A DNA stretch of 64,000 bases from Acidimicrobiales bacterium (GTDB lineage Bacteria; Actinomycetota; Acidimicrobiia; Acidimicrobiales; CADCSY01): NCBI GenBank assembly GCA_030446545.1, contig JAUJNB010000001.1, positions 280,885 through 344,884 on the forward strand. The letters run 5' to 3'. Under the pieces are notes generated by a model that saw only the letters and a program-made list of their open reading frames with translations, was not told the DNA's origin and made no database searches. Both the position numbers and the translations under genes were made by a program. Position 1 is the stretch's first letter. Each line of letters opens with the position of its first letter. Below, one piece after another: positions 15,916-43,854 of the stretch.

Positions 15916-15921
15916 GGGGCG

Positions 15922-26237: not shown

Positions 26238-26246
26238 AGGCCGCCT

Positions 26247-27804: not shown

Positions 27805-27899
27805 ACCCTCGGCCCGCCCCGGCCTTTCGCCAAGGGGTCCCTCCCCATGGGCACATGCCTGCGACTCCAGGGCCGACCGGTCGTCAGGGTTGCCCAGCG

Positions 27900-28936: not shown

Positions 28937-29174
28937 CCGGGTGCCTCCACGCCGGGCAACAGGGCGCTCAGGCGTCGCCACACCTCTCCTGAGGACACCG
29001 GCTCGAGGGTCACTCCCAGGGCAGGGTCGTCGTAGGCGGCGGCGGCGAGCACGATGCTCAAGGCGTCCCCGGGCCCTGGAGCACCGAGTCGACCACCGTG
29101 CCGAGGGCGGTGACGGCAAGCAGGACCCACACCGGCGTGAGACGCGCGCCCAGCTCAGCGTGCAGAACGCTCAC
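28933..29174 (-). pseudogene. deletion chimera: 5' end of a DUF3093-like gene joined to 3' end of an EspG-like gene
   Basis: VSVLHAELGARLTPVWVLLAVTALGTVVDSVLQGPG.. is near-identical at the DNA level to the start of 27900..28406. After a 1-nt loss it runs into ..DALSIVL|AAAAYDDPALGVTLEPVSSGEVWRRLSALLPGVEAPG*. Confidence 0.6.
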
Positions 29175-29707
29175 GCCTGTGCCTTGATCGCGCTGGGAGG
29201 TACGCCGTAAAACATCACGAGGGCGACGGCCACGTCGACGGCATCCGCCGTCTCGGTGATCAGATGGCTCCCGAGGACGCCCTTGAGACTCGCCACCGGC
29301 GTGCCGTTCTGCCACTCCAACAGCTCACGTGGAGCGATCCCCGTGATCCGGTAGAGGTACGACCGGTTCTCCAAGGTGACCACAACCCCTCGGTGGCGGC
29401 GGCTGAACAGTGCCCATTCGGGCCGCACCACTTCTCCGGAGAGAGATCCCACGTGCAGCGGCACCGGTTTCATGTAGGCCGCGACCGGCTGGCCGTCCAG
29501 CCGTCCCCAATGGCCGACGTCGAGCTGGGTAGAGGGCACGTTGGGCCCCCATACCCGGGTGGCGGTCTGGTCGTCGCTGTACCCGACGTAGGCCGGCCCG
29601 TACGGCCCTTGGTACCCAGCGCGCACCTCCACGCCGTCGGGCGAGCGGGGGGTGTCGTCGGAAACACTTCCCAGGCTGAAGGCCACCATGGGTGCCTTGG
29701 GGGTCAC
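29171..29707 (-). CDS. multicopy ~170-aa family protein, copy 7
   Basis: GTG at 29707 overlaps the upstream stop (GTGA). VTPKAPMVAFSL..GYQGPYGPAYVG..RVWGPNVP..GRLDGQPVAAYMK..FSRRHRGVVV..RSYLYR..VDVAVALVMFYGVPPSAIKAQA. Confidence 0.7.
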   Translation of the reverse strand: MTPKAPMVAFSLGSVSDDTPRSPDGVEVRAGYQGPYGPAYVGYSDDQTATRVWGPNVPSTQLDVGHWGRLDGQPVAAYMKPVPLHVGSLSGEVVRPEWALFSRRHRGVVVTLENRSYLYRITGIAPRELLEWQNGTPVASLKGVLGSHLITETADAVDVAVALVMFYGVPPSAIKAQA

Positions 29708-30983
29708 CGGGACACCTGCGCCACGCCCGGCAGCAGGGCGCTCAGGCGTCGCCACACCTCTCCCGAGGACACCGGCCCGAGGGTCACACCCAGAGCGGGG
29801 TCGTCGAAGGCGGCGTCGTCGGGCACCGAAGAGATCCAGTAGCCGGCCTCGACGGCGTCGACCACGGTGAGCGAGCGGCTCCGCCGGGACCCCTCTCGCC
29901 AGAGAGAGGTGGCTCGCCACGTCAGGCGCCGGCTGCCCACCATGGTTGCTACTGCCGTGGCCCCTTGTCGATCGAGCCGGCCTTTGCCCATCAGGGATGC
30001 CACCGCCCGGGAGCCGGCACCGGCGTCGACGTTGGCCATGGTGGCGTCGAGGAGGTGACGCTCGACGGTGACGGGATGGTCGAGCGCCGGGGCGGGGCGC
30101 CGGCGGTGCAAGGCCAACTTGAACCTCAGCCTGACATGGCCGAGAGCCAGGTCCCGGTCACCGGGGTGGGGCGTGTCGAGGAGCTGTCGGGCCAGACGGT
30201 CGATCTCTCCCGCGCTCACTCGTTGGGGCCCGACTACCGCCCCGGAAACGCCGTCGCCCTCCAGCAGCCACAGCCCGTCATCGGTCCCGAAGGCCCGCAC
30301 CGTGCGCTCCGGCGAGTCCGAGCGCCAGACCGGAGCGCGCTGCAGCGTGGTGGTGGCGGCGGCGGCGGTGAGCTGCTGGAGGTCGGGCACGGCCCCGGCC
30401 GACCCATTGGGCGCGACCGGCGACCCGTCGCCGGCCCGGCCGTCGGGATCCAGGGCACCAAAGACGTAGATCGCCTCCCGGTCCAGCGAGCGGAAAACCA
30501 ATATGTGCTGGCCGGACTGGGTGTCGACGTCGTCGTGCAGGGCGATCCCGTCGCCGAGGACCAGGGTCGCCCCGGCCCACCCCGCTCGCTCCCCGGATCC
30601 GTGGCGCCAGGTGAGCTGGCCGACCGCATGTTGGAAGGCATGGACAACGGCGTCGAGCAGGGGGTCGCACTCGACCTCGTCAGGGGCGTCCTCGGGGTAG
30701 GAGATCACCTCGTGGGCGACGTCGAGTCGCTCGACGGTCCGGGTCGACAACGACCGGAGCGACGGGGTCAGCGGCCAGAGGTAAGGGGTCCAGTGGGGGT
30801 CGGGCTCCTCGGGGAGACCCGCAAGCCCGCGGCACAGGACCAGTTCCTCGTCGAGGACCTCGCCCACCACCACATCGGAGCTGGCCGCCAGGCCCCCAGC
30901 CGGCCCCACTCCACCACCCCGGAGCGGTCGGCCAGGGCGGACAGGTCGACAGGACTGGTGAGGTAGGGGCCGTCAGCGGTCAT
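29704..30983 (-). CDS. two-part protein: unknown N-terminal domain + EspG-like C-terminal half; one apparent frameshift near 30895-30915
   Basis: ATG at 30983 (MTADGPYLTSPVDLSALADRSGVVEW) lies in the frame of ORF 30768..31076. The body is in ORF 29704..30909 (..GGLAASSDVVVGEVLDEELVLCRG..). The N-half is paralogous to 32905..33782. The C-half (LALHRRRPAP..SRRLTWRATSLWREG..TVVDAVEAGYWISS..VSSGEVWRRLSALLP) is paralogous to 23926..24714. Confidence 0.5.
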
Positions 30984-31521
30984 CGCCGGCCCAGCTGGTG
31001 GCGGCGCTGGGCGTTGGCCCGGGCTGCCTCCAACGCCTCCACCATCTCCTCGGCCCGAGGGCCGGGCAGCAACCACAGCGACGGCTCACGGCCGGGTTGG
31101 CGGTCTTCGACGAGCACTCCCTTGCCCCACCCCAACGCGCCACCGTAGAGGTTCTGCCTGACCCTCAACCGACCGTTCTCCCAATGCGGGAACCAACTGG
31201 TGAGCTGGCCACATGGCCGCTCAGCGACCTGACGTCACCCAGGCGGTGGACGGGGACCACCAGGCGACCGCGCACGTGCAGCCCCTTGTCGTCCACCTCG
31301 ACCGACCCCCAGCTCTGGGGGATGAACAGCAGCCCGGAGAAGACCACCAGGGCCAGGTACGTGCCGGCGATCCACCACCAGGCGTTGGGAGCTGTGGGTC
31401 CGGATGGGGTCAACGCATCAGTGGTCAGACAACCCACGGGGATGGCGACCATGAGGACGATCCATCCCCGAAGGAGGCGAGGGCCGTTCTTGAAGTGTGG
31501 AGTGGGAGCGGAGGGTTCCAC
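30980..31521 (-). CDS. two-TM DUF3093/PH-like membrane protein (paralog of 27900..28406), one apparent frameshift near 31215
   Basis: ORF 31165..31521 reads MEPSAPTP..GWIVLMVAIPVGCL..WWWIAGTYLALVVFSGLLFI..VEVDDKGLHVRGRLVVPV. The alternative frame reads ..QLTSWFPHWENGRLRVRQNLYGGALGWGKGVLVEDRQPGREPSLWLLPGPRAEEMVEAL (ORF 30980..31168). That parallels GGWFGDRASDVRVAGGQWGAAVGDRYVIVKERGQPGY of the paralog. Its stop overlaps the next ATG (ATGA). Confidence 0.55.
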
Positions 31522-31532
31522 TGTTGGTACGG

Positions 31533-32515
31533 CTAGAAGATGCTTCCGAGGACCCTACCGGCGCCCTTGACCACCGAGGACGCTCCGTCGACCACTGCGT
31601 CGGCACCGCTGTCCATCCACTGGCCGATCTTCTCCCGGTGCTCGTAGGCGGTCGCACCCACTACGAGTACCGCTCCGGCGCCGGCGACGACCGGGTTGGG
31701 GGTCATCAACATGACGCTCCCGGCGGCCGTCAGCCCTTTGGTGATGGCCTTCTCGGTATCCCCCTTCTTGTATGCGTCGTAGGAGTCATAGGCGGAGAGT
31801 GCGGCCCCGGCCGCACCGAGCCCTCGCCCGGCAACCGTCACTACGCGACCGGCGCCGGGGACTTCAAGAAGTCCTGCACACGGCGCCCGGGACCGGTCAG
31901 CCCTCGGTTGGCCCGTAGGGCGTAGCGACTCTCGTTGGATCGGCGCAGGAGAGCTCGGCGGACAGCCTTGAGCTCCCGGTACTTCACCTTCTTGACGACT
32001 TGTATCTCCCGGCGCGCCATGGTGGCGCCGCCGGGCGTCATAGCCCGGATGCTCGCCGTCGAAGGCATGGGGCGACTGCCGAACTGGCGGGCGATGTTCC
32101 AGGTCTGCGCCCCCGCAGTGACGGCCCGGGTGCCGGAGACGCTGGTTCGCACCAGCCGCAAGATGGCTTCGGAACCGCTCGTGGCCGCGTCGGCCATGCG
32201 GATGCCGGCGGCGACCGACGACACGATCGAGCCGAAGTTACCCACGCCCTCTCGGTCGGCCTCCTCGGCGGCGGCACCCAACAGCCCCACGTTCTCGCCC
32301 AGGGTGACGATGAGGTCGGCGGCGCTGTCGATGGCCTCTCCGTGGGCCGGCAGGGGCGGGACGAACTCCGAGGAGGTGGAGCGGAAGCGGTTGAGCGCAT
32401 CCTCGACGTCTTCGCCGGTGGCCCGCAGGTCGTCGGCCAAGATCTCGAGGTCGGCCGCCATCTCGTACATGGCCTCGGGCACGAAGACGACGTCGTTGCT
32501 CACCGGGGCCCCCAA
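31533..32515 (-). CDS. putative secreted effector (paralog c), split into 31841..32515 and 31533..31841 by a frame break
   Basis: The N-part reads ..VSNDVVFVPEAMYEMAADLEILADDLR... The C-part reads VTVAGRGLGAAGAALS..MTPNPVVAGAGAVLVVGATAYEHREKIGQWMDSGADAVVDG. That aligns with RGLGVAGGAVS..VAPSPVTAAATIVTGVAWVGLEAWNHREEIAEVWNDGVDAVGD of 24731..25684. Combined length is 326 aa against 317 aa for the paralog. Confidence 0.6.
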
Positions 32516-32849
32516 CGCCCTCGAGCTCGAGGCGACGCCGCTCCTGTTCCTCCTCCAGCTGCTCCTGGCGCTCCCGGCGCCGCTCCTCGTCCTCCGCCAG
32601 CGCGTCGGCCAGGGCCTGGCGGATGGCGTCGGCGGTCTCCTCGAGGTTGCCGGCCTCGGTGCGCAGGATCTGGGCCAGGTCGTCGGCGTTGGCGTCGAAG
32701 CCCAGGCGAGACGCTCCCGACCACGCCCCCAGCTGGCCGGCGGAGGCCTGCACCAGCCGCTGGGCGGCGGCGTCGAGGTCCGACGCTGCCGTCATGCAGG
32801 CCTCGATGGCCTGACGGGCGGTGGCCTCATCGAAGTCGACGAGCTCCAT
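32500..32849 (-). CDS. small WXG-like helical protein; 3' end ambiguous
   Basis: ATG at 32849 inside ORF 32238..33059. Reads MELVDFDEATARQAIEACMTAASDLDAAAQRLVQASAGQLGAWSGASRLGFD (W-x-G), followed by a charged coiled-coil tail. As assembled the frame runs on over the next gene. A 1-nt shift in the GGGGG/CCCC run gives a TGA at 32500-32502 overlapping a GTG (GTGA). Confidence 0.5.
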
Positions 32850-32904
32850 CTCATCCCCTCTTCTTCCGACAGAGGACCACAGCCAACAGCGCGATGGTAG
32901 TGCG

Positions 32905-33782
32905 TCAACCCCGGCGCCAACGCCGCTTCCATCGAGGGGTGTCGTCGCCGAGGGACAGGAGCTGGCGGGCGGCGGCCAGGATCTCCTGGTCGCCCAGTCG
33001 CTGCAGGACGGCGCCAGGCTCGGCGCCCCGCCGGCCCTGGAACAGCCACAGCCCGTCATCGGCGCCGTAGGCGGTGACGGCCTGCTCCTTCCCGCCGCCG
33101 GCGGTGATCCCGGCGGCGGCCATCACCGTGGTGGAGCGGGCCCGGCGGGCCAACTCCGCCACCCGGGGGCGACCTCCTCGACGGTGGCCGCCACCTCGGG
33201 GGCGACGGTGGTGGTGGAGCGGCCGGTGGGGTCGAGCATGGCCGCCAGCCACGCCGCCTGGCGCTCCTGGGTGCGCAGGACCATCTCGTGCAGTCCCGAC
33301 TCGGCGGAGATGTCGTCGTGTAGGGCTAGGCCGTGGGGAACCACGAACGCTCCCCCGATCGCCGTACCCTCGTCGACCACGTCGGTGCGCCAGGTCACCA
33401 GGGCCGAGGCCTGCTGGACCGCCCACACCAAGGTGGCATGGGGTTGTTCGAACACCGGGCCGCCGTCGTCGCCGAAGCTCAACTGCCCCCGGGACAACAG
33501 CAGGCGGACACAGGCCTGCTTGGCGATGTCGGCCTCCTCGGCGGCCAGTGCGCTCAGGTGCGCCGTCCAGTGGGGGTCGCCCGTCGAGTCGGGGTCGTCG
33601 CCGCACAGGACCACCTCCTCGTCGGTGAAGGTGCCCACCACGATGTCGTGGGCGCGGGCCACCTCGGCCAGGCGTCCCTTGGCCAGGTCGGTGCTGGTCA
33701 GGGACAGGTCCAGGGGAGCGGGGCGGTGGAGGTCGGGGTTGGTCGCCACCACCGGATGGTAGTGAAGGCCCCCACCAGCCAT
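32905..33782 (-). CDS. unknown-domain protein (paralog of the N-half of 29704..30983), one apparent frameshift near 33165-33185
   Basis: ORF 33123..33821 reads ..DLSLTSTDLAKGRLAEVARAHDIVVGTFTDEEVVLCGDDPDSTGDPHW..GLALHDDISAESGLHEMVLR. It continues in the frame of ORF 32905..34185: ..AVTAYGADDGLWLFQGRRGAEPGAVLQRLGDQEILAAARQLLSLG. The start may be 33782 or 33821. Confidence 0.5.
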
Positions 33783-33845
33783 GCCGGCCAACCAGGGTCT
33801 TGCCCGCACCAGAGAGTCCACCGGCTCGGCGTGGAGAACGGCCGC

Positions 33846-36800
33846 TCAAACGGCCGGCGGCCCCGGCACCTCGGGGGCAGGGCGACCTGGACCAGGGCTG
33901 CCTCTCCCCGGCCACGAGAAAGCCCCGTCCCGGCACAAGGGCGACGGGGACTCGACGGGGCAGGCGTTGGCCCAGGAGCTCGCCGTCGGCGGACAGGTTG
34001 GGTTGGAGCAGGATGCCCGTGCGCGACTGGCGCAGGCCCTGGTCCAGTGCCCGTAGGCCGCCCGTAGATCGTCGCTGCGCCCGGCGGCCACCACGTGCAG
34101 GCCCGGCCGGCGTGACTGCAGGAGCGTCCCCAGCAGGCCGTCGACGTCGTCCACCTGGGGGGCGTCGTCGACGAAGACGAACCACCGACGACCGTCACCC
34201 GGGGCCACCCGGATGACCTGGGCCAACTGCGACAGGGTCCCGGCGGCGTCGAGCGCCTCCAGGGGATGCAGCGACGAGCGATCGTCACAGACCCCCACCA
34301 GCACGGTGGCCGGGTCGGCCCGGCGCACCAGGCTGGCCATCAGGGCCAGCGTGGAGGTCTTGCCACTGCGGGGCGGCCCGGCCACCAGCACGTGGTCACC
34401 GGCGTGCAGGGTCAGCACCGCCGGGCCGAGGTCGTCGTCGGCGATCCCGACCGTGAGCTCCACCGGCGCAGGCTCCAGCTTGGCCCCGCCCGGCAGCTCG
34501 TGGAAGGCCAAGGAAGGCGGGAGCCCCCGGATGACGGCCGGAGGCGGGCGCCGCCCGGCACCCGTTCCCCGCAGGAGGGGCGACAGGTCACCGGGATGGC
34601 CCACCTGCATCACCAGCTTGGTGGGCCCGTGGACGGCCCGGCCGGGGACGAAGGCCGGCAGTCGCTTCGGTCGCAGCCCGATGGCGGAGAAGTCGGCCGG
34701 GTCCGCCAGTCGGAAGAGGATCTTCTGGCTGACCAGGGCGGCCATGCGCGCCGGGAGCGATCCGGGACGCTCGCCGGCGACCACGAACAGGATGTCCACC
34801 TCGGGCCCGTCGGCGAACACCCGCCGGAAGGCCTCGGCCGTCTCGGTGCTTTCGATTCCCTCATGTTCGGCCACAAAGGCGCCGATGCCGTCGATGAGCA
34901 CGACGACGCGGGCCTCCCCCGCCCGGTCGCTCGGGCTCAGGGCGCGCCGACGGTCGAGCTCGCGACGCAGGTAGCGAACCAGCCGGAGCTGACCCTCGTG
35001 ATCTCCGGCGGGCACGACCGCCCCGACGTCGTCATGGGCCACCAGGGGGGCCAGGCCTCCCGCCCCGAAGTCGACGGCGTAGACGTGCCAGGGCCGGTCC
35101 TCGCACCGATGGAGCAGCGAGCGGGCCACCGCCAGCAGGGCCGTGGTCGTGCCGCCGCCCACCATCCCGAAAAGGGCCAGGTGCCCGTCGGCCGGGTTCC
35201 ACCCCACCACTGCCTGACGCTGGTGCTCCGGGTCGTCGGCCAGAGCGAAAGGCACGGTCCCGACGTCGGCCTCGAGCAAGAGGATGTCGTCCAACTCGAT
35301 TCGGTCGCTCAGCATCTCGAGCCACGGCCGCCGAGGTGGTGGCGCCTGGCCCCGTTCGAAGGCGGACACCACGGCGTCGACCAGGCGGGCCAGGTCGCTG
35401 GGCCCGTTACCGGGCTCGGGCCCGGTCGCGGGCGACGAGGGAAGGGAGCCGAAGCCAAAGGGGCTCAGGCGCAGGGCGGTCGTCCGCCGGGCCTGGCGGG
35501 TGGCGGTGGCCAAGGCCGTCTGTACCAACTCGACATCGGTCGGGCCCGACCGGACGTAGGCCCTGCCGGGGTTCGACCGGGCAATGGCGGCCGCATCCTT
35601 GCGGTCGATGATGTCGGAGGAGTCGCCGGCGTCCTGGACACGAAGGGCGATGCGCAGGTTGGTGTTGGCCTTGATGTTGCCGTTCACCGCTCCCGACGGC
35701 CGCTGGGTGGCGAGCACCAGGTGCACTCCGAGGCTGCGGCCCCGCTGCGCCACCCCGACCAGGGCGCCCAGGAACTCGGGAAGTTCGCTGGCCAGGGTGG
35801 CGAACTCGTCGACCACCACCACCAACCGGGGCAACGGACCCGAGGGCGAGCCGCTGCGCAGGTAGCTGGCCTGGTCCTGGGCGGCCGACACCCGCAGCAC
35901 GCGTTCTCGATGGGCCAGCTCGGCCTCCAGCGAGGTGAGGGCCCGCTCCCCGAGGTGTTCGTCGAGGTCGGTGACCAGCCCGACGACGTGGGGCAGACGG
36001 GCGCACTGGTCGAAGGCGCTGCCCCCCTTGTAGTCGACGAGGACGAACACCAGGTGGTCGGGGTCCACCCGGGCCGCCAGGCCGGCGACCAGAGAGCGCA
36101 GCAGCTCGCTCTTCCCCGACCCGGTGGTGCCGCCCACCAGGGCATGGGGCCCGTCGCGCACCAGGTCGATGTCGACCATCCCGCGCTCGCCCATGCCGAT
36201 GGGCGTGCGCAGGGGCGGGTCGGGCAGGCCCCGGGACCACGCCCGGGCCACGACGTCGGGGTCGACGTCGTCCATCTCGAGCAGGGGCAGCAGCCGCACC
36301 AGCTTGGGCAGGCCGCTCCCGAGCACCTCCAGCTCGGAGTCCTCGTAGCGGGCCAGGGCCCGGGCGGTGGCCCGAGCGGTGGCGTCGTCGACCCCTCCGA
36401 TCAGAAAGGCGTCGATGCGCACCCGGTCCCGGGGCCGACGGAGGTCGGCATCGCCCAGGGGCCGGAGGTCGACCACCACGGTGCACATGGCCGGCAACTG
36501 GTCCTCGCTCGGGGCCAACACCACCCCCGCCACCGGCCCGGCCGCACCGTTGAGCACCAGGCGGGCCGGGGCCCGCCGACCCTCGACGAGCGCCACGTCG
36601 TCGACCACCACCAGTCGGGTGCGGCCTCCGCTGGTGTCGGCCGGACGCGACCGCAGGCGCGAGCCCGGTCCGCCCTCGTCCCCGGAGGAGGCCAGCAGCT
36701 CGCTCAGCAGCGCCTCGCAGGCCGGGCGGTCACCCGCCAGCAACCGGGACGACCCGTCCACATGGCGGGTGTGGGGCAGCCACTTGGCCCAGTCCCAGTC

Positions 36801-38090
36801 GGAGGTATGCCCGCCGGAGGCCAAAACCACCACGGCCAGGTCGGCCGGCCCGTGATGCACCGCCGCCTGGCACACCAGGGACCGGGCCAGCGCCAGGCCG
36901 GCGGCCCGGTCCCCGACCAGTCCCACCACCCCCCCGGACGAGAGGTCGACCTCGACGGGAGCGTCGTGGAGCAGGGTGAAGCGGGCCATCACCCGGCCCA
37001 CCTCTTCGTCCATCTCGTCGCGAGGTCCCTCGACGGGCGGTGACCAGGGGACGGGGCCGGTCCCGGCGCGCAAGGCGAGGAAATCGTCGTGGACGGGACG
37101 ACGCTGCCAGAGCGTGGTACTCGGTGCGTGGGCCCGGCGCAGCGTCTCGGCGATGTCGACCAACCGTTCCTCGCCGCGCCGGACCTCGGCCGCGGCGGCG
37201 GCTCGCAGGGCCTGGTCGAAGGCCTCGAGGGCAGCTCGGAAATCCCGGCCTCTCGCCTTGTTCTCCTTGGTCGTCCGACGCCGGGACGACACGTAGTTGC
37301 CGATCATCATGATCGGGCTGAGCAGCATGAACAGGGCGAATCGGGGATCACGGTAGAAGTAGATGAGCGCTCCGCCCATCAACAGCGGGGCCACAACCGT
37401 GATCACGCTGAAAGCCCGGCTACGGCCGGAGCCCCGGGGCGGTTCCGGCGCTTTGATCGGCGGCGGTCCCTCAGCCGGCGCCGGGCGGGGCGGTCGGTTG
37501 AACGGGACGAGCCCGCCCACGGCCCGGTGCAGCGGGTCGATGGCCAGCGGCCGGTCGTCGGGGAGGCGCAGGCGCAGGCGCGCCTGGGTGGCGCCGAAAC
37601 GCACCAGGGCGCCCGGAGGCACGGGCGTGGGCCCGAGCACCGGGTGCCCGTCGATCCAGGTGCCGTTGTGTGACTCGAGATCGGTCACCACCACCGAGCC
37701 GTCGGGGACGACGTGGAGGCGGGCGTGGTGGGCCGAGAGGGTGGAGTCGGCCAGCGCCACCTCGCACGCCGGCGAGCGGCCCACCACCACCTCGCCGGGG
37801 CCGAGAGGGTGGGCCGATCCCGCCCCACGGCCGCCGACGAACATCAGGGTGGGGCCCTCGCCGGCGACTCGGGCCACGGGGGCCTTGCCGGCCACGTGCA
37901 CCATCGCCCCCTCGTGCAGGCCGATCTCGTCCAACCCGGCGTCGGCGCCGAAGTACCGCTCGGCGATGACCACCCCGGCTCCAGGGGCGGCGCCGATGGC
38001 GGCCACGAGGTCGGACACGCACGCCTGCGGGTGTTCGATGTCGAGGTCGAGCTCCTGCTCGGCCCCGTCGTGCACGACGACGATCTGCAC
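33846..38090 (-). CDS. FHA-domain FtsK/SpoIIIE-family triple ATPase (EssC/EccC-type T7SS-like coupling ATPase)
   Basis: 1414-aa ORF with a GTG start 12 nt after the tadA stop. FHA-like core: VVVGRSPACEVALADSTLSAHHARLHV..LESHNGTWIDG. Two TM helices: AFSVITVVAPLLMGGALIYFY and FALFMLLSPIMMIGNYV. Three P-loops: GGTTGSGKSELLRSLV, degenerate GMVGGGTTTALLAVA, and GPPRSGKTSTLALMA. The last ~70 codons as assembled look like off-frame junk. The expected ..LRQSRTGILLQPNLSADGELLGQRLP..PGRGFLVAG.. and ..EAALVQVALPP.. lie in the other two frames, implying about 3 single-nt indels near 34040, 33905 and 33875. Confidence 0.85.
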   Translation of the reverse strand: MQIVVVHDGAEQELDLDIEHPQACVSDLVAAIGAAPGAGVVIAERYFGADAGLDEIGLHEGAMVHVAGKAPVARVAGEGPTLMFVGGRGAGSAHPLGPGEVVVGRSPACEVALADSTLSAHHARLHVVPDGSVVVTDLESHNGTWIDGHPVLGPTPVPPGALVRFGATQARLRLRLPDDRPLAIDPLHRAVGGLVPFNRPPRPAPAEGPPPIKAPEPPRGSGRSRAFSVITVVAPLLMGGALIYFYRDPRFALFMLLSPIMMIGNYVSSRRRTTKENKARGRDFRAALEAFDQALRAAAAAEVRRGEERLVDIAETLRRAHAPSTTLWQRRPVHDDFLALRAGTGPVPWSPPVEGPRDEMDEEVGRVMARFTLLHDAPVEVDLSSGGVVGLVGDRAAGLALARSLVCQAAVHHGPADLAVVVLASGGHTSDWDWAKWLPHTRHVDGSSRLLAGDRPACEALLSELLASSGDEGGPGSRLRSRPADTSGGRTRLVVVDDVALVEGRRAPARLVLNGAAGPVAGVVLAPSEDQLPAMCTVVVDLRPLGDADLRRPRDRVRIDAFLIGGVDDATARATARALARYEDSELEVLGSGLPKLVRLLPLLEMDDVDPDVVARAWSRGLPDPPLRTPIGMGERGMVDIDLVRDGPHALVGGTTGSGKSELLRSLVAGLAARVDPDHLVFVLVDYKGGSAFDQCARLPHVVGLVTDLDEHLGERALTSLEAELAHRERVLRVSAAQDQASYLRSGSPSGPLPRLVVVVDEFATLASELPEFLGALVGVAQRGRSLGVHLVLATQRPSGAVNGNIKANTNLRIALRVQDAGDSSDIIDRKDAAAIARSNPGRAYVRSGPTDVELVQTALATATRQARRTTALRLSPFGFGSLPSSPATGPEPGNGPSDLARLVDAVVSAFERGQAPPPRRPWLEMLSDRIELDDILLLEADVGTVPFALADDPEHQRQAVVGWNPADGHLALFGMVGGGTTTALLAVARSLLHRCEDRPWHVYAVDFGAGGLAPLVAHDDVGAVVPAGDHEGQLRLVRYLRRELDRRRALSPSDRAGEARVVVLIDGIGAFVAEHEGIESTETAEAFRRVFADGPEVDILFVVAGERPGSLPARMAALVSQKILFRLADPADFSAIGLRPKRLPAFVPGRAVHGPTKLVMQVGHPGDLSPLLRGTGAGRRPPPAVIRGLPPSLAFHELPGGAKLEPAPVELTVGIADDDLGPAVLTLHAGDHVLVAGPPRSGKTSTLALMASLVRRADPATVLVGVCDDRSSLHPLEALDAAGTLSQLAQVIRVAPGDGRRWFVFVDDAPQVDDVDGLLGTLLQSRRPGLHVVAAGRSDDLRAAYGHWTRACASRARASCSNPTCPPTASSWANACPVESPSPLCRDGAFSWPGRGSPGPGRPAPEVPGPPAV

Positions 38091-38102: not shown

Positions 38103-39476
38103 TCAGCCCCGGTAGGGCGACGAGGGGCGGGCGGCGCCTGCGGTCCCGGCCTGGTCCCACCATCCCTGGGGTCGGCTCAACACCGAGGGGTCGAAGCCGG
38201 CCTCTTCCAGGTCGGCCTGGGTGCGGCTGCGCAGGGGCGCCCCGGGGACGGCCCGGCGATCCGGTCCCGGCTCGAACACCTCGTTGGAGATCACCATGGA
38301 GCCTTCGGCCCCCACCACCTCCCGGATCGAGGAGATGTAGCGACCGAACCGGCGCTCGTGGGTGTCGCGCCCGACGTAGACGACGAAGTCGAGGGCATTG
38401 GCCACGATGAGGTTGGTGGCCTCCAGCGGGAGGCGCTCGGGCGCCTGCACCGCGTACATGGCCAGCTTGCCAAAGGCGCCGGCCGAGGAGTTGGCGTGGA
38501 TGGTGCACATCGAGCCGTCGTTGCCCTGGCTCATGGCGTTGAGCATGGGCAGCACCTCGTCGCCCCGCACCTCACCGACGATGACCCGGTCGGGGTCCAT
38601 GCGCAGGCCCCACCGCACGAGCGCGGCCAGGGTGATGGCTCCCTCGCCCTCCACGTTGTGCTCGCGGGCCTCGAGGGCCACCACGTCGGGGTGGAGCTCG
38701 GGATAGCGGTCGACACCGAGCTCGAGGTTGTCCTCGATGGTGACCAGGCGCTCGTCGGGGTCGATCTCGTTGATGAGGGCCCGCAACAGGGTGGTCTTGC
38801 CGGCGTCGACCCCCCCGCAGACGATGATGTTCTTGCGGGCCCGCACGGCTGCGGCCAGGAACTCCTGCAGGGCGAGGTCGATGGTGCCCAGGCCGACCAG
38901 GTCTTCGAGGAACAGCTTGGGATAGCGGTGGCGGCGGATGGCCACGCACGGGTGCGACGTCACCGCCATCACCGCGAACAGGCGGCTCCCGTCGGGCAGC
39001 TGCACGCTCAGTCGAGGAGCGCCGACATCGAAGCGCCGCTCGGTCAGGCCCACCCGGGCCGCCGTCATCCGCAGCGTCTCGATCAGCTCCTCGTCGCTGT
39101 CGGCGATGGCCGGCCCGAGCTCCTTGGTGCCGTCGGCCCGGGTGATCCACACCTCGGCCGCGCCGTTGATGTTGATGTTCTCGATGGTCTCGTCCTCGAG
39201 CAGCCGCTGCAGGGTGCCGAGGCCGAAGAGGGCGTCGTGGACGGCCTGGGCCAGCGACATCTCCTCCTCGGCGGAGAGGGGGACACGCCCCTCCTCGAGC
39301 TCCTCGCGGGCGAAGACGGCCAGCCGCTCGTTGATGAGCTGGCGCCCGAACAGGCGCTGGTCGACCTGGCTCAGCCGGGCGCGGCTGGAGGCGGTGTCCT
39401 CACGCAGCCGGTCGGTCAACTTGTCGGCCACCTCCTGGCGGAAGCGGCGGACGAGCACCTGGTCAGCGCGGTCCAT
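38103..39476 (-). CDS. tadA: CpaF/TadA-family type II/IV secretion ATPase
   Basis: ATG at 39476 (MDRADQVLVRRFRQEV) inside ORF 38103..40130. Walker A is VCGGVDAGKTTLLRAL. Also shows RVIVGEVRGDEV and MSQGNDGSMCTIHANS. Confidence 0.9.
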   Translation of the reverse strand: MDRADQVLVRRFRQEVADKLTDRLREDTASSRARLSQVDQRLFGRQLINERLAVFAREELEEGRVPLSAEEEMSLAQAVHDALFGLGTLQRLLEDETIENININGAAEVWITRADGTKELGPAIADSDEELIETLRMTAARVGLTERRFDVGAPRLSVQLPDGSRLFAVMAVTSHPCVAIRRHRYPKLFLEDLVGLGTIDLALQEFLAAAVRARKNIIVCGGVDAGKTTLLRALINEIDPDERLVTIEDNLELGVDRYPELHPDVVALEAREHNVEGEGAITLAALVRWGLRMDPDRVIVGEVRGDEVLPMLNAMSQGNDGSMCTIHANSSAGAFGKLAMYAVQAPERLPLEATNLIVANALDFVVYVGRDTHERRFGRYISSIREVVGAEGSMVISNEVFEPGPDRRAVPGAPLRSRTQADLEEAGFDPSVLSRPQGWWDQAGTAGAARPSSPYRG

Positions 39477-40623
39477 CGGGGTTCTCCTCGTCTGGGGGAT
39501 CGGGAGGGGGGCCCGACGACGGTGGGTCCGCCTCGGACAGGTGGGGACGGGCCTGGAGGGGCCGGGCCCGCGCCGTGCGACGAGGCCGCTCGGTCGGGGG
39601 CTGGCGAGGTCGGGGAGGCTCCGAGGATCTCGCCGGTGTGGGGGCCGGCGCCACCGTGGTGGCCAGGTCGGCCAGCGATCGCCACGGCGCCACCGGCTCG
39701 GCCGGGGCGCCCGAGGGCGCCAGGGCGGGCACCGGCGGCTCGGGATCCGGCTCCAGCTGTCGCGACCAGGGCCGGGCCGGCGGTGGCGGGGGAGGCGGCG
39801 GCGATGGCGCCTGCTCACGCCCCGCCAGGGGTGGTGGGTGCCGGAGCTGCTCGGGCTCCGGGTCGGGCCAGGTGGCCACCGAGGACCGCCCGTCGGCGCT
39901 CCCGGACCCCATTCGGGCCGACAGCTGCTCGGCCAGGGTACGGGCCGTGCGCAGGAGACCCGAGGCCCGCAGCACCCGCGACCGGCCGTGGTCGCCGCCG
40001 GACAGCAGCTCGGCGGCCCGGGCGTCGTCGGCGATGGTCCCGAGGGGCTGGGCCCCGACCGCCCGGCCGGCCTCGACCACGCCGTAGGGGCGGTCGCCGA
40101 CCAGCAGCAACGCCGTCGCCACCCCGGCACCGAGGGCCTGCACCCGCGCCGCCAGGTGGTGCAGCTGGGAGACCTGTGGCCGGGCCACCAGGATCATCAG
40201 CTCCGCCGCCCGCACCATGGCCATGACCGGCGACGCCGGGTCGAGCCGCCCGCAGTCGGCCAGCACGTCGATGCCGTCGAGCCCGGCCAGCAGGTTGGCC
40301 AGCCGAGAGCTCAGGGCCGACAGGGCGGCGGTGGACTGCTCGGCCGAGGCCGGGCCGGCCAGGACCTGGACTGCGTCGGAACCGGGCAGGGGCTGCGTCT
40401 GTTGCCACAGCATCTCCGGCGTCAGCTCTCGGCGGCCCTCGGCCGCCAACCGCACCAGGCCCCGCTCGACGTCCAAGCCCAGGCGAGGAGCCAGGTCGCC
40501 GCCGGCCGGGTCGGCCTCCACCACCAGGAGGCGCCGGTCGCCGGGCCAGCGGGCGGCCAGAGCGGCCACCGCCGTGGTCACGCCCGGCGAACCCTTGGCC
40601 GAGCCCAGTGCGACCAGCGTCAC
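39463..40623 (-). CDS. ParA/MinD-like ATPase-fold protein (TadZ/CpaE- or Ssd-like) with Pro-rich tail
   Basis: GTG at 40623 overlaps the upstream stop (GTGA). VTLVALGSAKGSPGVTTAVAALAA is a deviant P-loop region. The C-terminal ~130 aa are rich in Pro, Ala and Glu. Confidence 0.65.
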   Translation of the reverse strand: MTLVALGSAKGSPGVTTAVAALAARWPGDRRLLVVEADPAGGDLAPRLGLDVERGLVRLAAEGRRELTPEMLWQQTQPLPGSDAVQVLAGPASAEQSTAALSALSSRLANLLAGLDGIDVLADCGRLDPASPVMAMVRAAELMILVARPQVSQLHHLAARVQALGAGVATALLLVGDRPYGVVEAGRAVGAQPLGTIADDARAAELLSGGDHGRSRVLRASGLLRTARTLAEQLSARMGSGSADGRSSVATWPDPEPEQLRHPPPLAGREQAPSPPPPPPPPARPWSRQLEPDPEPPVPALAPSGAPAEPVAPWRSLADLATTVAPAPTPARSSEPPRPRQPPTERPRRTARARPLQARPHLSEADPPSSGPPPDPPDEENPDGPR

Positions 40624-41339
40624 CGGTCGGGCACCAGGACCAGGCTGACCCGGCCCTCGGCCGATGCCCCGGCGATGTCGGGCGCCCCTTCCCGGGGCAC
40701 GGCGAGGGACACCACCGCGGTGGACCCGTCGACCAGCTCGTCGCTGGCGAACACCCGGGCCTCGGCCAACACCCGCCCGAGGGAGCCCGGTGCCACGCTG
40801 CCGGCCGGGCGACCCGCTCCCCCGTCGAGATCGGCGGGGGCCGACGACGAGGCGTTGAGCACCACCAGCACCTGGTCGCCGGGCTGGAGCCGGCCCGAGG
40901 GCAACTGCTCGCGCGGCACGGGCACGCCCACCACCACGTCGCCCTCGGCCAGGAGCGACGCGTCCCCCCACTGACCCTGGGTCAGCAGCGCGCCCGGTAC
41001 CAGATCGACGGCGGCCGACTGGCCGATGACCGCAGCCCGCCGGTCGGCACCGACCGGCCGCAGGCCGGGGTCGGCGGAGACCCGCACCACCGCGAGGTCG
41101 GCAGCCTCGATGAGCTGACCCTCCGGCACCGGCCGGGCCACCGCCAGCACGGGCTCGCGCCCGCCGGCGTTCACCCACAACAGAGCGAAGGCCAGAGCCG
41201 AGCCGATGGTGACGAGGATCGACACCAGGGCGAGCGACCAGCGTCGCTGACGGGTCGGGCCCGAAGGCACCCGAGGGGGTCGGTCGGGGCCACGGGGCGC
41301 CGGGGCGGCCCGACGAGTCGGTGCGCTGGTGCTCGCCAT
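40620..41339 (-). CDS. SAF-domain / CpaB-like Flp pilus assembly protein
   Basis: ATG at 41339 (MASTSAPTRR..). Has one TM segment (WSLALVSILVTIGSALAFALLWV), then PVLAVARPVPEGQLIEAADLAVVRV (SAF-like). Confidence 0.65.
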   Translation of the reverse strand: MASTSAPTRRAAPAPRGPDRPPRVPSGPTRQRRWSLALVSILVTIGSALAFALLWVNAGGREPVLAVARPVPEGQLIEAADLAVVRVSADPGLRPVGADRRAAVIGQSAAVDLVPGALLTQGQWGDASLLAEGDVVVGVPVPREQLPSGRLQPGDQVLVVLNASSSAPADLDGGAGRPAGSVAPGSLGRVLAEARVFASDELVDGSTAVVSLAVPREGAPDIAGASAEGRVSLVLVPDR

Positions 41340-41346
41340 GTCGCTC

Positions 41347-42306
41347 CTAGTCGTCTTCGGTGGAGGAGTCGGGGGAGGTGGGGCGTCCCGCCCCGTCGTC
41401 GGGGCTGCCCGTCGCCAGGAGGGACTCGCCTCGGCCCGGGTCGTCGCTCTGGGGGCCGAGGGGCACCATGACCTCCATCCGGTCTCCGTCCCCGCCGTCG
41501 GACACCACCAGGGTGCCACCGGCCGTGCCGTCGGACGGGAGTGGCCTCATCGACTCCGTGGCCGGGCCCGGCGACGAAGCCACCCCGGCCACCGTCGCCC
41601 CCTCCCCCGGGCCGAGGCCGACGGCGTCGTCGGGCAGGCGCAGCGTCCACCCCGGGTAGATCCGGTCGGGGTCGGCCATGGTGGCGCCGTCGGGCTGCTC
41701 GCGTCCCTGGTTCAGCTCCCAGATCTCCACCCACCGGAAGGGATCGCGCAAGCACGTCTCGGCGATCCCCCACAACGTGTCGCGCTGCTGCACCACGTAG
41801 GTCGGTTGGGCGTCCGCGCCTGCCAGGTCGGTGAGCTCGGCCCCGCTGGCCACCACCCCGGCCGTGGCCGCCGGCATCGGCACGGGCACGGCCTGCACGG
41901 TGCGATCGGGCCGGGTGAGCAGAAGGATGACCATCAGCGAGACAGCGGCGACCAGCCGGGCCACGAGCCGCTGGACCGGGCCGGTGAGCGGGACCCGCCC
42001 GGCCTGGCGCCCGCGCACGACGGCGACCACCTCCACCAGCAGCGACGCCACCAGTTCGACCCACACGATCCAACACACCACCGCCAGCGCCTTGGCCAGG
42101 AAGGTGTCAGGGATGTAGCTGTCGCCCAGCGCAGTGGTGACCTGCGACCAGCTGGGGATGGCCGACGGCAGGGGCCAGCCGACGAAGGTCGACAAGGCCC
42201 AGGGCACCCCGCCCACCAGGGCGGCGATGGCCACCGCCCCCAGTGCGCCGCGCGCCAGGTCGGGACCTCGGGGAATGGCCTGTGTCGCTACCGGTCCCGT
42301 CACCAT
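41347..42306 (-). CDS. membrane protein with LysM peptidoglycan-binding domain
   Basis: 319-aa ORF with several N-terminal TM segments. The LysM-like segment reads YVVQQRDTLWGIAETCLRDPFRWVEIWELN..IYPGWTLRLP. Confidence 0.7.
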   Translation of the reverse strand: MVTGPVATQAIPRGPDLARGALGAVAIAALVGGVPWALSTFVGWPLPSAIPSWSQVTTALGDSYIPDTFLAKALAVVCWIVWVELVASLLVEVVAVVRGRQAGRVPLTGPVQRLVARLVAAVSLMVILLLTRPDRTVQAVPVPMPAATAGVVASGAELTDLAGADAQPTYVVQQRDTLWGIAETCLRDPFRWVEIWELNQGREQPDGATMADPDRIYPGWTLRLPDDAVGLGPGEGATVAGVASSPGPATESMRPLPSDGTAGGTLVVSDGGDGDRMEVMVPLGPQSDDPGRGESLLATGSPDDGAGRPTSPDSSTEDD

Positions 42307-42354: not shown

Positions 42355-43854
42355 TCATGCCTCGTCGGTCTGGCTCTCGGTGGGAGCCGGGAGATCAGGT
42401 GGGACGACGGCGCCGCCCCGCAACACGATCTCCTGGCATCCGCCTTTCCCATCATCGCTCACTTCGGGGGAGGCGTCGCGCTGGTTGGTCTCCACCGCCG
42501 CCGCGCTGGGCAGCGGTTCGCCGGGTCGGGCCCAGGTGAGGAAGTAGAAGACCTGGCCGGTGGCCGGACGGTAGAGGCCCGGGGTGTCGGTCCCGTCACA
42601 GTCCCAGTCGCCGAGGAGGAAGGCGTCGTCGGGCTGGCCCAGCTGGAATCGCCGGGGCTGCGACTCGGCCGGGTCGACCACCGCCTCCACCACGTCTCCC
42701 TGGCGGACGACGAAGGTGTCACAGCCGTCGCCGTCGAGGTCCCCCTGGAGCAGGGCCGAGCCCTCAGGCCGCGATGGGGGCGCAAGGGCCGTACACGCCG
42801 GCGCCCGGACCCCGCCGGAGCCGGCCTCACCCGACAGCAGTGCTCGCAGGGGGCCAGCCAGGACGGTGAGCACGGCCAGCCCGGCCAGCACGCCGCCGAG
42901 CACCAACACCCGGGATCGGCGGCGGGACGGAGCCAGCGCCGGACGGGGTGGCCGAGGACCGAAGGTGCTGGTACCCCGGGCGCCGGCATCACCCCGGCCT
43001 GCGGGCCCGAGGGTGGCCGGCAGCACCGCAGCGGTGGCACCGAGCGACGCCCGAAGGTCCCGGGCCAGGTCGGCCGCGCCGGCGTAGCGGTCGGCCGGAC
43101 GCCGGGCCATGGCCCGCTCGACCACCGAGGCCAGGGCGTGGGGGACCTGGGGATCTGCTGTGAGCGGCGGGTGGCGGCCGCGGTCGGCGGCCCGAACCAC
43201 GGCCAACGGGGTCGTCCCGGCGAACGGCGGTCGCCCGGACAGCGCCTCGTAGCAGACGACGCCGAGGGAGTAGACGTCGCTCCGGACATCGGGATGGCCG
43301 CCGTCCAGGAGCTCCGGGGCCAGGTACTCAGCCGTCCCGGCCACCGACTCCTCGGCGGTGAGGGCCTGGGCGAAACGCCGGGCCACGCCGAAGTCCGACA
43401 GCAGGGGCTCCCCGTCGGAGGTGAACAAGATGTTGGCCGGCTTGACGTCGCAGTGCAGCACCTGGCGCCGATGAGCCGAGGCCAAGGCGTCGGCGATGGG
43501 GGCGGCCAGGGCCACCACCTCACCTGCGGCCAGTCGTGGGCGCCGGGCCAGGACGTCGGCCAGCGACCCTCCCGGTGCGTACTGCATCACCACGGCCAAG
43601 CCGTCGCCTTCGTCGATCACCTCGATCACCCGGACGATGTGTGGGTGATCGAGCTGGGTCAACACGGTCGCCTCGTCCCGCAGACGCTCCACCTCGCGCC
43701 CCTCCACACCGGGGCGCAGCCGCTTGAGCGCCACCACCTGGCTGACCGGACCAATCCGCCGGGCGCGCCACACCACTCCGGTCGAGCCTGAGCCCAACTC
43801 CTCCTCGAGCTGGTAGCTCCCGAACGTCTGCCGCCGAGCAGTGCCGTCGATCAC
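42355..43854 (-). CDS. transmembrane Ser/Thr protein kinase with FG-GAP/VCBS-like extracytoplasmic repeats
   Basis: GTG at 43854 inside ORF 42355..45087. Hanks motifs: GSGSTGVVW, VALKRL, HCDVKPANIL, DFG, TAEYLAPE. One TM segment (VLVLGGVLAGLAVLTVLAG). Extracytoplasmic part: GDLDGDGCDTFV and LGDWDCDGTDTPGLYRPATGQVFYF. Confidence 0.85.
   Translation of the reverse strand: MIDGTARRQTFGSYQLEEELGSGSTGVVWRARRIGPVSQVVALKRLRPGVEGREVERLRDEATVLTQLDHPHIVRVIEVIDEGDGLAVVMQYAPGGSLADVLARRPRLAAGEVVALAAPIADALASAHRRQVLHCDVKPANILFTSDGEPLLSDFGVARRFAQALTAEESVAGTAEYLAPELLDGGHPDVRSDVYSLGVVCYEALSGRPPFAGTTPLAVVRAADRGRHPPLTADPQVPHALASVVERAMARRPADRYAGAADLARDLRASLGATAAVLPATLGPAGRGDAGARGTSTFGPRPPRPALAPSRRRSRVLVLGGVLAGLAVLTVLAGPLRALLSGEAGSGGVRAPACTALAPPSRPEGSALLQGDLDGDGCDTFVVRQGDVVEAVVDPAESQPRRFQLGQPDDAFLLGDWDCDGTDTPGLYRPATGQVFYFLTWARPGEPLPSAAAVETNQRDASPEVSDDGKGGCQEIVLRGGAVVPPDLPAPTESQTDEA

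Follow-up and report, generated by a model that had tools for sequence, protein, structure and literature searches.

A receptor-type Ser/Thr kinase kept beside an FHA-bearing EssC-like ATPase in Acidimicrobiia suggests phosphothreonine control of a type VII secretion system

We analyzed a 64,000-nucleotide stretch of DNA from an Acidimicrobiales bacterium (the window), in which a receptor-type Hanks kinase gene is followed on the same strand by type VII secretion (T7SS) genes interleaved with Tad/Flp-type genes (Table 1). The gaps from the kinase through the FHA-bearing ATPase are 48, ∼76, 38, −14, and 12 nt, as in a tight operon, and the codon-position GC of the kinase ORF fits a real gene (GC3 0.86). 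The kinase had been described as the first co-directional gene, which does not strictly hold; on that strand, 101 nt separate it from an upstream oxidoreductase gene (43956–45257, minus strand) that falls outside the conserved module. A promoter and terminator scan of 33000–46500 gave no signal above the shuffled expectation.

Table 1. Genes and features of the locus in the window.
Feature	Position	Strand	Basis
Receptor-type Hanks Ser/Thr kinase, 499 aa	42355..43854	-	Pfam Pkinase, non-RD type
Kinase catalytic domain, aa 14–256	43087..43815	-	Pfam Pkinase
Single transmembrane helix of kinase, aa 313–341	42832..42918	-	Kyte-Doolittle scan
Kinase cytoplasmic juxtamembrane motif T295-S-T-F-G-P-R-P(-PRP), candidate autophosphorylation/FHA-docking site	42949..42972	-	orthologue alignment
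Extracytoplasmic Cys-rich all-beta domain of kinase, aa 353–499, about three FG-GAP-like DxDxDG repeats	42358..42798	-	alignment, AF2
Membrane protein, three hydrophobic segments, outward LysM domain	41347..42306	-	Pfam LysM, E = 3.2e-5
SAF/RcpC (CpaB-like) protein	40620..41270	-	Pfam RcpC, SAF; TIGR03177 below cut-off
ParA/CpaE-position protein, Pro-rich tail	39463..40581	-	position conserved in orthologues
TadA/CpaF-type secretion ATPase, 14-nt overlap with preceding gene	38103..39476	-	Pfam T2SSE, E = 1.3e-35; TIGR03819, E = 5e-70
EssC/EccC-like FtsK/SpoIIIE ATPase: ubiquitin-like domain, FHA, TM region, ATPase domains	33846..38090	-	Pfam FtsK_SpoIIIE, FHA
Beta-grasp (ubiquitin-like) N-terminal domain of ATPase, aa 1–68	37887..38090	-	AF2 topology
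FHA domain of ATPase, aa 101–166, R105/S119/H122/N142/T144	37593..37790	-	Pfam FHA
ATPase juxtamembrane PFNRPPRP motif	37446..37505	-	orthologue comparison
Two apparent frameshifts, last ∼60 codons of ATPase gene	33900..34040	-	tblastn versus orthologues
T7SS cargo/chaperone/immunity-like island: EspG-like fragments, seven ∼170-aa paralogues	20400..33810	-	internal paralogy
EspG-family protein	23926–24714	-	Pfam ESX-1_EspG, E = 5e-6
TadB/TadC-like platform genes, Flp-sized ORF, TadE, TadE, TadG-like pseudopilins	16385..20388	-	T2SSF; TadE, Tad
Small helical WXG-like ORF, then T7SS_signal-domain (LXG-like) protein	14353..16206	-	Pfam T7SS_signal, E = 2.4e-13

The Tad/Flp-type parts recognized in the window are TadA, TadB/C, CpaB (RcpC/SAF), and the TadE/TadG pseudopilins; the 72-aa Flp-sized ORF matched no family model, and the ParA-position protein had no Pfam or NCBIfam match. 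The TadA/CpaF-type ATPase is 73 to 91% identical in relatives, and TadB and TadC are also conserved in the related locus L002. Among the locus proteins scanned, there was no member of the EssB, EccB, EccD, EccE, or MycP families, leaving the kinase as the only kinase-fold membrane partner found. A gene for a 93-aa WXG100-like protein (E = 9.5e-5, below cut-off) follows the FHA-bearing ATPase in 17 distinct related loci; the window has no homologue of it and carries a different WXG-like ORF at 15922–16206. The module has no conserved PP2C phosphatase. We considered a CHASE3-HAMP-SpoIIE phosphatase (46320–47948) as the cognate enzyme and rejected it, as it has no homologues in related loci and adjoins an RsbW-like gene; it probably belongs to a separate partner-switching module.

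The reading of 42355–43854 as a Hanks-type kinase with one transmembrane helix was well founded. The protein scores 162.5 bits with Pkinase (PF00069; cut-off 31.7, E = 1.7e-47), its nearest solved structures are StkP, PknE, PknB, and PknA, and a full catalytic set (K44, E61, H134/D136, N141, DFG154–156, and A179-P-E) is invariant in 20 aligned orthologues. An RRRSR stretch lies N-terminal of the hydrophobic segment, the only such segment in the protein. The kinase is of the non-RD type, with no Arg before the catalytic Asp: the window protein reads HCD and most orthologues HGD. Of 110 orthologues, 101 have G at the middle position, 4 have C, 3 have V, and one each has R or L. Such a catalytic loop does not exclude activity, and the membrane kinase is apparently active, as judged from its sequence.

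Outside the membrane, the kinase carries a domain that had been predicted to hold FG-GAP/VCBS-like repeats. The motifs on which that prediction was based, GDLDGDGCDTFV and GDWDCDGTDTPGLYRP, are both present, and the alignment shows four invariant Cys together with the DxDxDG motifs. An AF2 model of aa 353–499 was all-beta with a pLDDT of 92.7, and its best PDB matches were the FG-GAP propellers ITFG2, TcB/YenB, and PVL lectin, all of them weak (E from 3.8e-3 to 0.4, TMq ∼0.5). The prediction is thus borne out in part: the repeat motifs are there and the fold may be propeller-like, but a Pfam search of aa 359–499 at E ≤ 1 returned no FG-GAP, VCBS, or other family. A profile of the ectodomain matched ∼12,000 cluster representatives, many of which hold 4 to 22 copies of the unit fGxPGDxPxxGDWDGDGxDTxGLYRP; these multi-repeat relatives mostly have no Pfam match either. 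The LysM membrane protein expected after the kinase is there, with its LysM match and three hydrophobic segments, and its gene comes directly after that of the kinase in all loci compared.

The EssC/EccC-like ATPase matched FtsK_SpoIIIE in two stretches and has a TM segment at aa 225–247 and a C-terminal P-loop region at aa 1234–1344. It scored 484 bits against TIGR03928 (EssC; cut-off 778) and 361 bits against TIGR03924 (EccCa; cut-off 509), and because it falls below both NCBIfam equivalog cut-offs, we regard it as a member of a related yet distinct EssC/EccC clade. An FHA domain on this secretion ATPase, part of the original prediction, was readily recovered with PF00498 (54.7 bits, cut-off 20.7, E = 1.3e-14) and with FhaB_Rv0019c (E = 1.2e-19). 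Of 27 distinct orthologues, 26 retain R105, S119, H122, N142, and T144; the remaining one is a frameshifted read. In sequence and fold, the domain is nearest to the phosphothreonine-binding FHA domains of FhaA, GarA, OdhI, and MDC1 (in fold also to CT664), and it is farther from the EssC pseudo-FHAs than from these phosphothreonine-binding domains. On its conserved residues, it looks like a functional, canonical phosphothreonine reader. Ahead of it, AF2 modeled a beta-beta-alpha-beta-beta-beta topology (pLDDT ∼78–90); Pfam had no match in aa 1–68, so the ubiquitin-like call comes from topology alone. A protein homology search with the ATPase N terminus returned 14 fragments and no full-length orthologue, and a genome scan with two narrow peptide patterns found no N-terminal FHA-FtsK architecture outside Acidimicrobiia. 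The matches of that scan past locus L029 were discarded as FHA-FtsK candidates, being generic FHA proteins of FhaA/FhaB-type operons. At the 3′ end of the gene, tblastn with orthologue C termini placed frame changes at ∼34035 and ∼33905, and given these two apparent frameshifts, the window ATPase may be defective.

Between its catalytic domain and membrane helix, the kinase carries the motif Thr-x-x-[FYW]-G-P-R-[PS], present in 118 of 120 orthologues, and the ATPase has a similar juxtamembrane motif whose Thr is found in 25 of 27 orthologues (AGTIPFNRPPRP). The window ATPase has Leu at this position, as does that of the closest relative, so only kinase T295 could serve in these two. When we searched 2.96 M six-frame residues with the pattern T..[FYW].{1,2}RPPR, 48 of 52 occurrences fell in the kinase or FtsK and 4 elsewhere, a statistic that is post hoc. 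GarA is recognized at a pT-x-x-F site (ETTSVF), with the same +3 residue as the kinase motif. The Pro/Thr/Ser-rich tail of the ParA-like protein, which had been put forward as another potential phospho-acceptor, was dropped as the leading one; these tails are variable, poorly conserved Pro-rich linkers with no conserved Thr motif, and T295 of the kinase appears to be a far better acceptor candidate. The phosphorylated T295 motif of the kinase (GxTxxFGPRPPRP) and AGTIPFNRPPRP of the ATPase together make a concrete docking-site prediction that can be tested with peptides.

If the kinase acts on the ATPase, the two genes should stay together in other genomes, and they do. In 6/6 informative kinase-centered loci, an orthologue that shares the ectodomain is found no more than 10 kb from FHA-FtsK, and in 13/15 informative ATPase-centered loci the kinase follows FHA-FtsK. 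The linkage persists across two gene orders: FtsK-WXG-kinase in most genomes, and kinase…TadA-FtsK in the window and in locus L087. Every locus keeps the order kinase-LysM-SAF-ParA-like-TadA, a linkage at least as tight as that to FHA-FtsK, which switches sides and is sometimes set apart by inserts of 3 to 4 kb. Loci L022 and L026 hold orphan FHA-FtsK paralogues in housekeeping contexts with no kinase. In L004, as in L084, an inverted three-gene cassette comes after the WXG100 gene and runs to the contig end, which makes L004 uninformative on linkage. The constant interleaving involves the Tad-like ATPase/pseudopilin module, and the original prediction gave this Tad linkage no weight.

Control of a T7SS ATPase by a kinase acting through an FHA domain has already been proposed by Garrett, Higginson & Palmer (2024) for T7SSc, T7SSd, and T7SSe, which encode a membrane kinase and in which TsdC and TseC keep the phosphothreonine consensus (PMC11217815); the conceptual gain here is for that reason incremental. 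The main text of that paper makes no mention of Acidimicrobiia. Its T7SSd comprises the WXG100 protein TsdA, the FHA-EssC protein TsdC, and the membrane Ser/Thr kinase TsdD, and our locus resembles it in the EssC-type ATPase with an N-terminal FHA domain bearing the phosphothreonine consensus, in the single-pass kinase, in its actinomycetotal host, and, in relatives of the window locus, in the WXG100 gene. The differences, which we drew from the published description of TsdC and TsdD, are that the outer domain of the kinase is modeled here as all-beta and FG-GAP-like, whereas the C-terminal region of TsdD is described as helical; that a ubiquitin-like domain, called from topology only, is fused to the ATPase here, whereas T7SSd is reported to have no ubiquitin-like component; and that a LysM protein always accompanies the system here, as does a complete Tad-like module. 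T7SSd also encodes TsdI, a protein of ∼1650 aa with a signal peptide, Ig-like domains, and a C-terminal TM segment, and TsdH, a small single-TM protein (PMC11217815). We identified neither a TsdI-like giant Ig protein nor TsdH in the window; TsdH has no model to search by, the largest window ORF besides the ATPase is 605 aa, and proteins of >1300 aa lie near the related loci L001 and L003.

In topology and position, the kinase corresponds to EssB of T7SSb and to TscD/TsdD of T7SSc/d. In T7SSb, too, a single-pass kinase-fold protein (EssB/YukC) partners the FHA-bearing N terminus of EssC (PMC9600267, PMC4925161), but EssB is catalytically dead and the two EssC FHA domains have no phosphothreonine pocket, whereas in our locus the kinase and the single FHA domain of the ATPase both look functional. 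In Mycobacterium tuberculosis, PknF phosphorylates Thr residues of Rv1747, an FHA-bearing transporter encoded in the same operon, and regulates it positively (PMC3138270). [quoted passage not shown] The type VI secretion pair PpkA/Fha1, offered in the original prediction as the precedent, serves as a functional analogy, and the T7SSc/d/e membrane kinases are the closer parallel (PMC11217815). In the Pseudomonas aeruginosa PpkA/Fha1/PppA pathway, secretion is activated post-translationally when an FHA domain reads phosphothreonine made by a membrane-bound Hanks kinase that has a sensor domain on the outside, and a PpkA-TssL-Fha phosphorylation pathway in Agrobacterium tumefaciens is among the work cited in PMC11217815. 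In those systems, however, Fha is a separate scaffold and not fused to the motor ATPase, there is a PP2C partner of which none is conserved here, and the machine is an unrelated contractile apparatus of diderms; we found no T6SS families among the window proteins scanned. In the Esr system of Actinomycetales, too, a type VII system is coupled to a beta-propeller sensor at the surface, to a Ser/Thr kinase, and to an FHA output, but Esr has vWA/MoxR components, its FHA output is a protein of its own, EsrG, and one of its arms is transcriptional (PMC13622651); the locus proteins that we scanned included no vWA/MoxR component and no separate FHA output. What sets the Acidimicrobiia locus apart from T7SSc/d/e is its single canonical FHA domain behind a ubiquitin-like domain, its kinase ectodomain, its LysM partner, and its constant Tad-like interleaving.

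The retention of the kinase beside the FHA-bearing T7SS ATPase in many Acidimicrobiia genomes makes a phospho-switch plausible. We consider it moderately probable that this protein is the membrane kinase of an Acidimicrobiia-specific T7SS variant and gates the ATPase through FHA-read phosphothreonine. The small disulfide-bonded FG-GAP-like ectodomain, probably with the LysM membrane protein, would sense an envelope or cell-contact cue, and the non-RD kinase domain would then phosphorylate threonine, the best candidate being its own T295 (TxxF-G-P-RPPRP) and the second, in most genomes, AGT-IPF-N-RPPRP of the EssC-like ATPase. Binding of the phosphothreonine by the N-terminal FHA domain could recruit, oligomerize, or activate the ATPase and would in this way gate export of WXG100/LXG-type substrates.

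The kinase might instead mainly control the Tad-like machine (CpaB/SAF, ParA/CpaE-like, TadA, TadB/C, and pseudopilins), with the FHA-FtsK association secondary, the T7SS genes simply sitting beside or inside the Tad cluster. In favor of this are the invariant kinase-to-TadA block, about which FHA-FtsK moves, and T7SSg and T7SSh of Bacillota, which also adjoin Tad genes with no functional link known (PMC11217815). We think it unlikely: membrane kinases recur as a component of T7SSs (PMC11217815), the one FHA domain that we located in the module sits on the FtsK ATPase, and the TxxF-RPPRP motif ties the kinase to that ATPase and not to TadA. Nor, to our knowledge, do other actinobacterial Tad-like clusters, the TIGR03815–03819 "helicase/secretion neighbourhood" loci, carry such a kinase.

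We give still less credence to an EssB/YukC-like structural scaffold that binds the ATPase N terminus without phosphorylation, its catalysis irrelevant to secretion. The layout does match EssB, with a kinase fold at the N terminus, a single TM helix, and an outer domain, and the EssC FHA domains of T7SSb need no phosphothreonine to bind the EssB pseudokinase (PMC11217815, PMC9600267), but pseudokinases and pseudo-FHAs lose the very residues that are kept here, namely the K, E, HxD, N, and DFG of the kinase (across 20 orthologues) and the phosphothreonine pocket of the FHA domain. It is about equally improbable that the kinase senses envelope stress or threats and controls transcription of the cluster, with no direct action on the ATPase. 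Kinase-dependent transcriptional induction of T7SSs is documented, in Enterococcus faecalis through the kinase IreK (PMC7790226) and in Esr (PMC13622651), and the ectodomain and LysM neighbor would suit an envelope sensor; against this, the module conserves neither a transcription factor nor an FHA-output protein, and the FHA domain is part of the ATPase polypeptide.

Should the FHA-read switch hold, T7SS subtypes would extend to Acidimicrobiia, an abundant and mostly uncultured lineage of soil and water, and would include one with an apparently active kinase in the EssB position and a canonical phosphothreonine reader on the motor ATPase. The functional meaning of T7SS/Tad co-location was left open by Garrett et al. 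(2024) (PMC11217815). As the two sets of genes are interleaved here and stay together through rearrangement, the genomic case for coupling is stronger than that from adjacency. One could go further and regard FHA-EssC, WXG100, the kinase, and the Tad-like genes as a single envelope-spanning machine, in which a T7SS motor would be coupled to a pseudopilus and assembly gated by the kinase, the TxxF-x-RPPRP motif shared by kinase and motor being read by the FHA domain of the motor; we find this quite doubtful. In a machine of that kind, a real kinase would occupy the position held by the EssB pseudokinase in T7SSb.

We established the domain content, residue conservation and synteny of the kinase and the FHA-FtsK ATPase within a gene block defined by a codon-position GC gene call and family searches. 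The window has a G+C content of ~72%, and its proteins have their closest relatives in MAGs named as Acidimicrobiales or Acidimicrobiia. The membrane Ser/Thr kinase is real (Pkinase match, E=1.7e-47), with StkP, PknE, PknB and PknA as its nearest solved relatives. K44, E61, H134xD136, N141, DFG and APE are invariant among 20 orthologues, and the protein looks catalytically active, as a non-RD kinase (HCD in the window, HGD in 101/110 orthologues). Its predicted single TM helix was recovered as one hydrophobic helix (aa 313-341) preceded by an RRRSR stretch, and family search confirmed the neighboring LysM membrane protein. The kinase, originally described as first in the co-directional block, comes first only among the conserved module genes: 101 nt upstream, on the same strand, is an oxidoreductase gene. 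The intergenic gaps from the kinase through the FtsK gene (48, ~76, 38, -14, and 12 nt) suggest an operon.

Genes of the block, with window positions
Feature	Position	Strand
Oxidoreductase	43956-45257	-
Ser/Thr kinase	42355-43854	-
LysM membrane protein	41347-42306	-
SAF/RcpC (CpaB-like)	40620-41270	-
ParA-position protein, Pro-rich tail	39463-40581	-
TadA/CpaF ATPase (TIGR03819-like)	38103-39476	-
FHA-bearing EssC/EccC-like FtsK ATPase	33846-38090	-
Island: EspG-family protein and repeated small paralogues	~20.4-33.8 kb	-
TadB/TadC	18634-20388	-
Flp-sized ORF and TadE/TadE/TadG-like pseudopilins	16385-17884	-
WXG-like ORF and T7SS_signal (LXG-like) protein	14353-16206	-

Family search also bore out the FHA domain on the secretion ATPase. 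R105, S119, H122, N142, and T144 are kept in 26/27 distinct orthologues, the exception being a frameshifted read; the nearest domains by sequence are those of FhaB/FipA, OdhI, GarA, FhaA, MDC1, and Rv1747, and an AF2 model superposes on pThr-binding FHAs with TM of 0.8-0.9 (target-normalised). In keeping these pThr-pocket residues, the domain differs from the FHAs of T7SSb EssC, which lack the pocket (PMC11217815). The first ~68 residues of the ATPase (37887-38090, -) are predicted to form a beta-grasp (ubiquitin-like) domain fused before the FHA, an assignment that no HMM backs. T7SSs usually encode a separate YukD/EsaB-like protein. At the 3' end of the ATPase gene (33900-34040, -), comparison with orthologues ran through three successive frames over the last ~60 codons, switching after ...GHWTR (~34035) and after ...GRGFLVAG (~33905); these two indels reflect either assembly errors or gene decay, and artefacts of a similar kind occur in L006 and L027, related loci from long-read MAGs.

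About 18 residues ahead of the TM helix, 118/120 kinase orthologues carry Thr-x-x-[FYW]-G-P-R-[PS], which in the window reads T295-S-T-F-G-P-R-P-P-R-P (42949-42972, -). In ATPase orthologues the corresponding juxtamembrane stretch (37446-37505, - in the window) is A-G-T-I-P-F-N-R-P-P-R-P, with Thr in 25/27, and a juxtamembrane TxxF-x(1,2)-RPPR motif is common to both families. As a post hoc statistic, T..[FYW].{1,2}RPPR occurs 52 times in the six-frame translation of all retrieved DNA (2.96 million residues), 48 of these hits being in the kinase or the ATPase. GarA, an actinobacterial FHA protein, uses a pT-x-x-F site (ETTSVF). The kinase juxtamembrane Thr is a candidate phosphosite and docking motif, which makes for a concrete prediction. 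In the ATPases of the window and of its closest relative, L087, the motif Thr is Leu, so that only kinase T295 could be the docking site there. The tail of the ParA-like protein, also proposed as a phospho-acceptor, turned out to be a variable Pro-rich linker. No phosphatase is conserved among the related loci. A CHASE3-HAMP-SpoIIE gene (46320-47948) was considered as the cognate phosphatase and rejected, having no counterpart in related loci and adjoining an RsbW-like gene. This (PP2C) phosphatase and the adjacent RsbW-like HATPase protein (46320-48766, -) lie 2.4 kb upstream of the kinase, and neither is conserved in related loci; they probably form a partner-switching module of their own.

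The original prediction called for a check of kinase/FHA-FtsK co-occurrence in other genomes, and we found the two linked in nearly every informative locus. In a kinase-centred sample (orthologues with full-length coverage, 47-78% identity, on long contigs), FHA-FtsK lies <10 kb upstream of the kinase on the same strand in L001, L002, L003, L084, and L086, where the usual order is FHA-FtsK, a 93-aa WXG100-like gene, kinase, LysM protein, SAF, ParA-like, TadA. L087 (kinase 74% identical) has the order of the window, kinase-LysM-SAF-ParA-like-TadA-FHA-FtsK; the linkage outlasts this change in gene order. L085 and L088 are interrupted by contig ends. A genome scan gave 26 Acidimicrobiia loci with the ATPase N-terminus, in 13 of which (three being the same contigs as L001-L003) a kinase with the same ectodomain follows the ATPase. 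L022 (515-4876) and L026 (~3780-7834) are orphan FHA-FtsK paralogues in housekeeping context (ABC transporter, TetR, and redoxin genes), with kinase, WXG100, and Tad genes all absent from their surroundings; L022 shares one MAG with the kinase-linked L023. The rest of the 26 stop too early to be informative. The WXG100-like gene between FHA-FtsK and kinase occurs at L001 9561-9842 and in 16 other distinct related loci; most type-A relatives share it at 77-91% identity, six more divergent loci at 41-53%, and no homologue was detectable in the window. In L004, the WXG100 gene is followed by an inverted three-gene cassette to the contig end, as in L084. Genes right after TadA in L085 (6413-8741) and L086 (15825-18026) include an SseB-family protein, a T7SS_signal-EndoU toxin, and an RHS-repeat protein, joining T7SS-type cargo to Tad-like genes in other genomes too.

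In the outer 147 residues of the kinase, both originally reported motifs are joined by a third, degenerate copy, and four cysteines are invariant. No Pfam model, FG-GAP and VCBS included, matched this region at E<=1. With 36 orthologues as input, AF2 gave a confident all-beta model (pLDDT 92.7), whose best PDB matches, though weak (E>=3.8e-3, TMq ~0.5), were FG-GAP-type propellers (ITFG2, TcB/YenB, UmbA4, PVL lectin). On motif and fold class, though not on family membership, the repeats are therefore fairly called FG-GAP-like. A profile search gave ~12,000 cluster representatives; in many of them an fGxPGDxPxxGDWDGDGxDTxGLYRP unit is repeated 4-22 times in tandem, and most tested multi-copy members have no Pfam model. 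The repeat unit fGnPGDxPxxGDWDGDGxDTxGLYRPxxGxfY (42358-42798, -; also in proteins P0141, P0163, and P0175) defines a very large family in which a protein can hold as many as 22 copies.

Control of the ATPase by the kinase through the FHA domain is the best-supported reading; it has strong comparative support, and the same idea has been published for sister systems. In the biochemical steps, all of which we infer, the kinase would be the membrane kinase component of a T7SS variant, sensing the envelope via its mini-propeller ectodomain and LysM partner and autophosphorylating at the juxtamembrane Thr. In most genomes it would also phosphorylate the matching Thr of the ATPase, whose FHA would bind the phosphothreonine, leading to motor recruitment or oligomerisation. 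For the window itself, the indels in the ATPase gene, the missing WXG100 gene, the lack of a conserved phosphatase, and the variable ParA-like tail call for caution. A rival reading, that the kinase acts mainly for the Tad-like module, draws on a linkage to that module even more rigid than that to FHA-FtsK. Signaling to transcription, as in the IreK or Esr pathway (PMC7790226, PMC13622651), is another rival, while an EssB-like scaffold working without phosphorylation is unlikely because the catalytic and pThr-binding residues are intact.

Kinase-to-FHA control has precedents. Garrett, Higginson & Palmer 2024, who defined T7SSc-j, explicitly suggested that a kinase may tie phosphorylation to TsdC-FHA interactions and noted Tad genes of unknown significance adjoining T7SSg/h; Acidimicrobiia are absent from their main text (PMC11217815). 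The window system has its core logic in common with T7SSd but differs in its ectodomain, modeled as all-beta and FG-GAP-like where that of TsdD is described as helical, and in its single FHA after a predicted beta-grasp domain, T7SSd being reported without a ubiquitin-like part (PMC11217815). It also differs in its LysM partner and in a complete Tad-like module interleaved with T7SS genes, and no TsdI-like giant protein was found in the window. The closest experimentally proven analogue is PknF/Rv1747, in which the kinase controls an FHA-bearing export ATPase of the same operon (PMC3138270); the originally proposed analogy to T6SS PpkA/Fha1 holds as a functional likeness but is looser. The main additions here are the concrete phosphosite/docking-motif prediction and an unusually strong genomic case for T7SS-Tad coupling.

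Between the FtsK and TadB/C genes, seven ~170-aa paralogues (45-58% identity to 29171-29689) form a repeated array with several EspG-like fragments (20491-30909, -), apparently a set of T7SS cargo, chaperone, and immunity cassettes. Two plus-strand gene pairs (12093-13417, + and 21773-23082, +) sit within the otherwise minus-strand cluster; because their sizes match (148/163 aa and 152/163 aa) and both 163-aa members have the same weak DUF6484 match, they look like a duplicated two-gene cassette.
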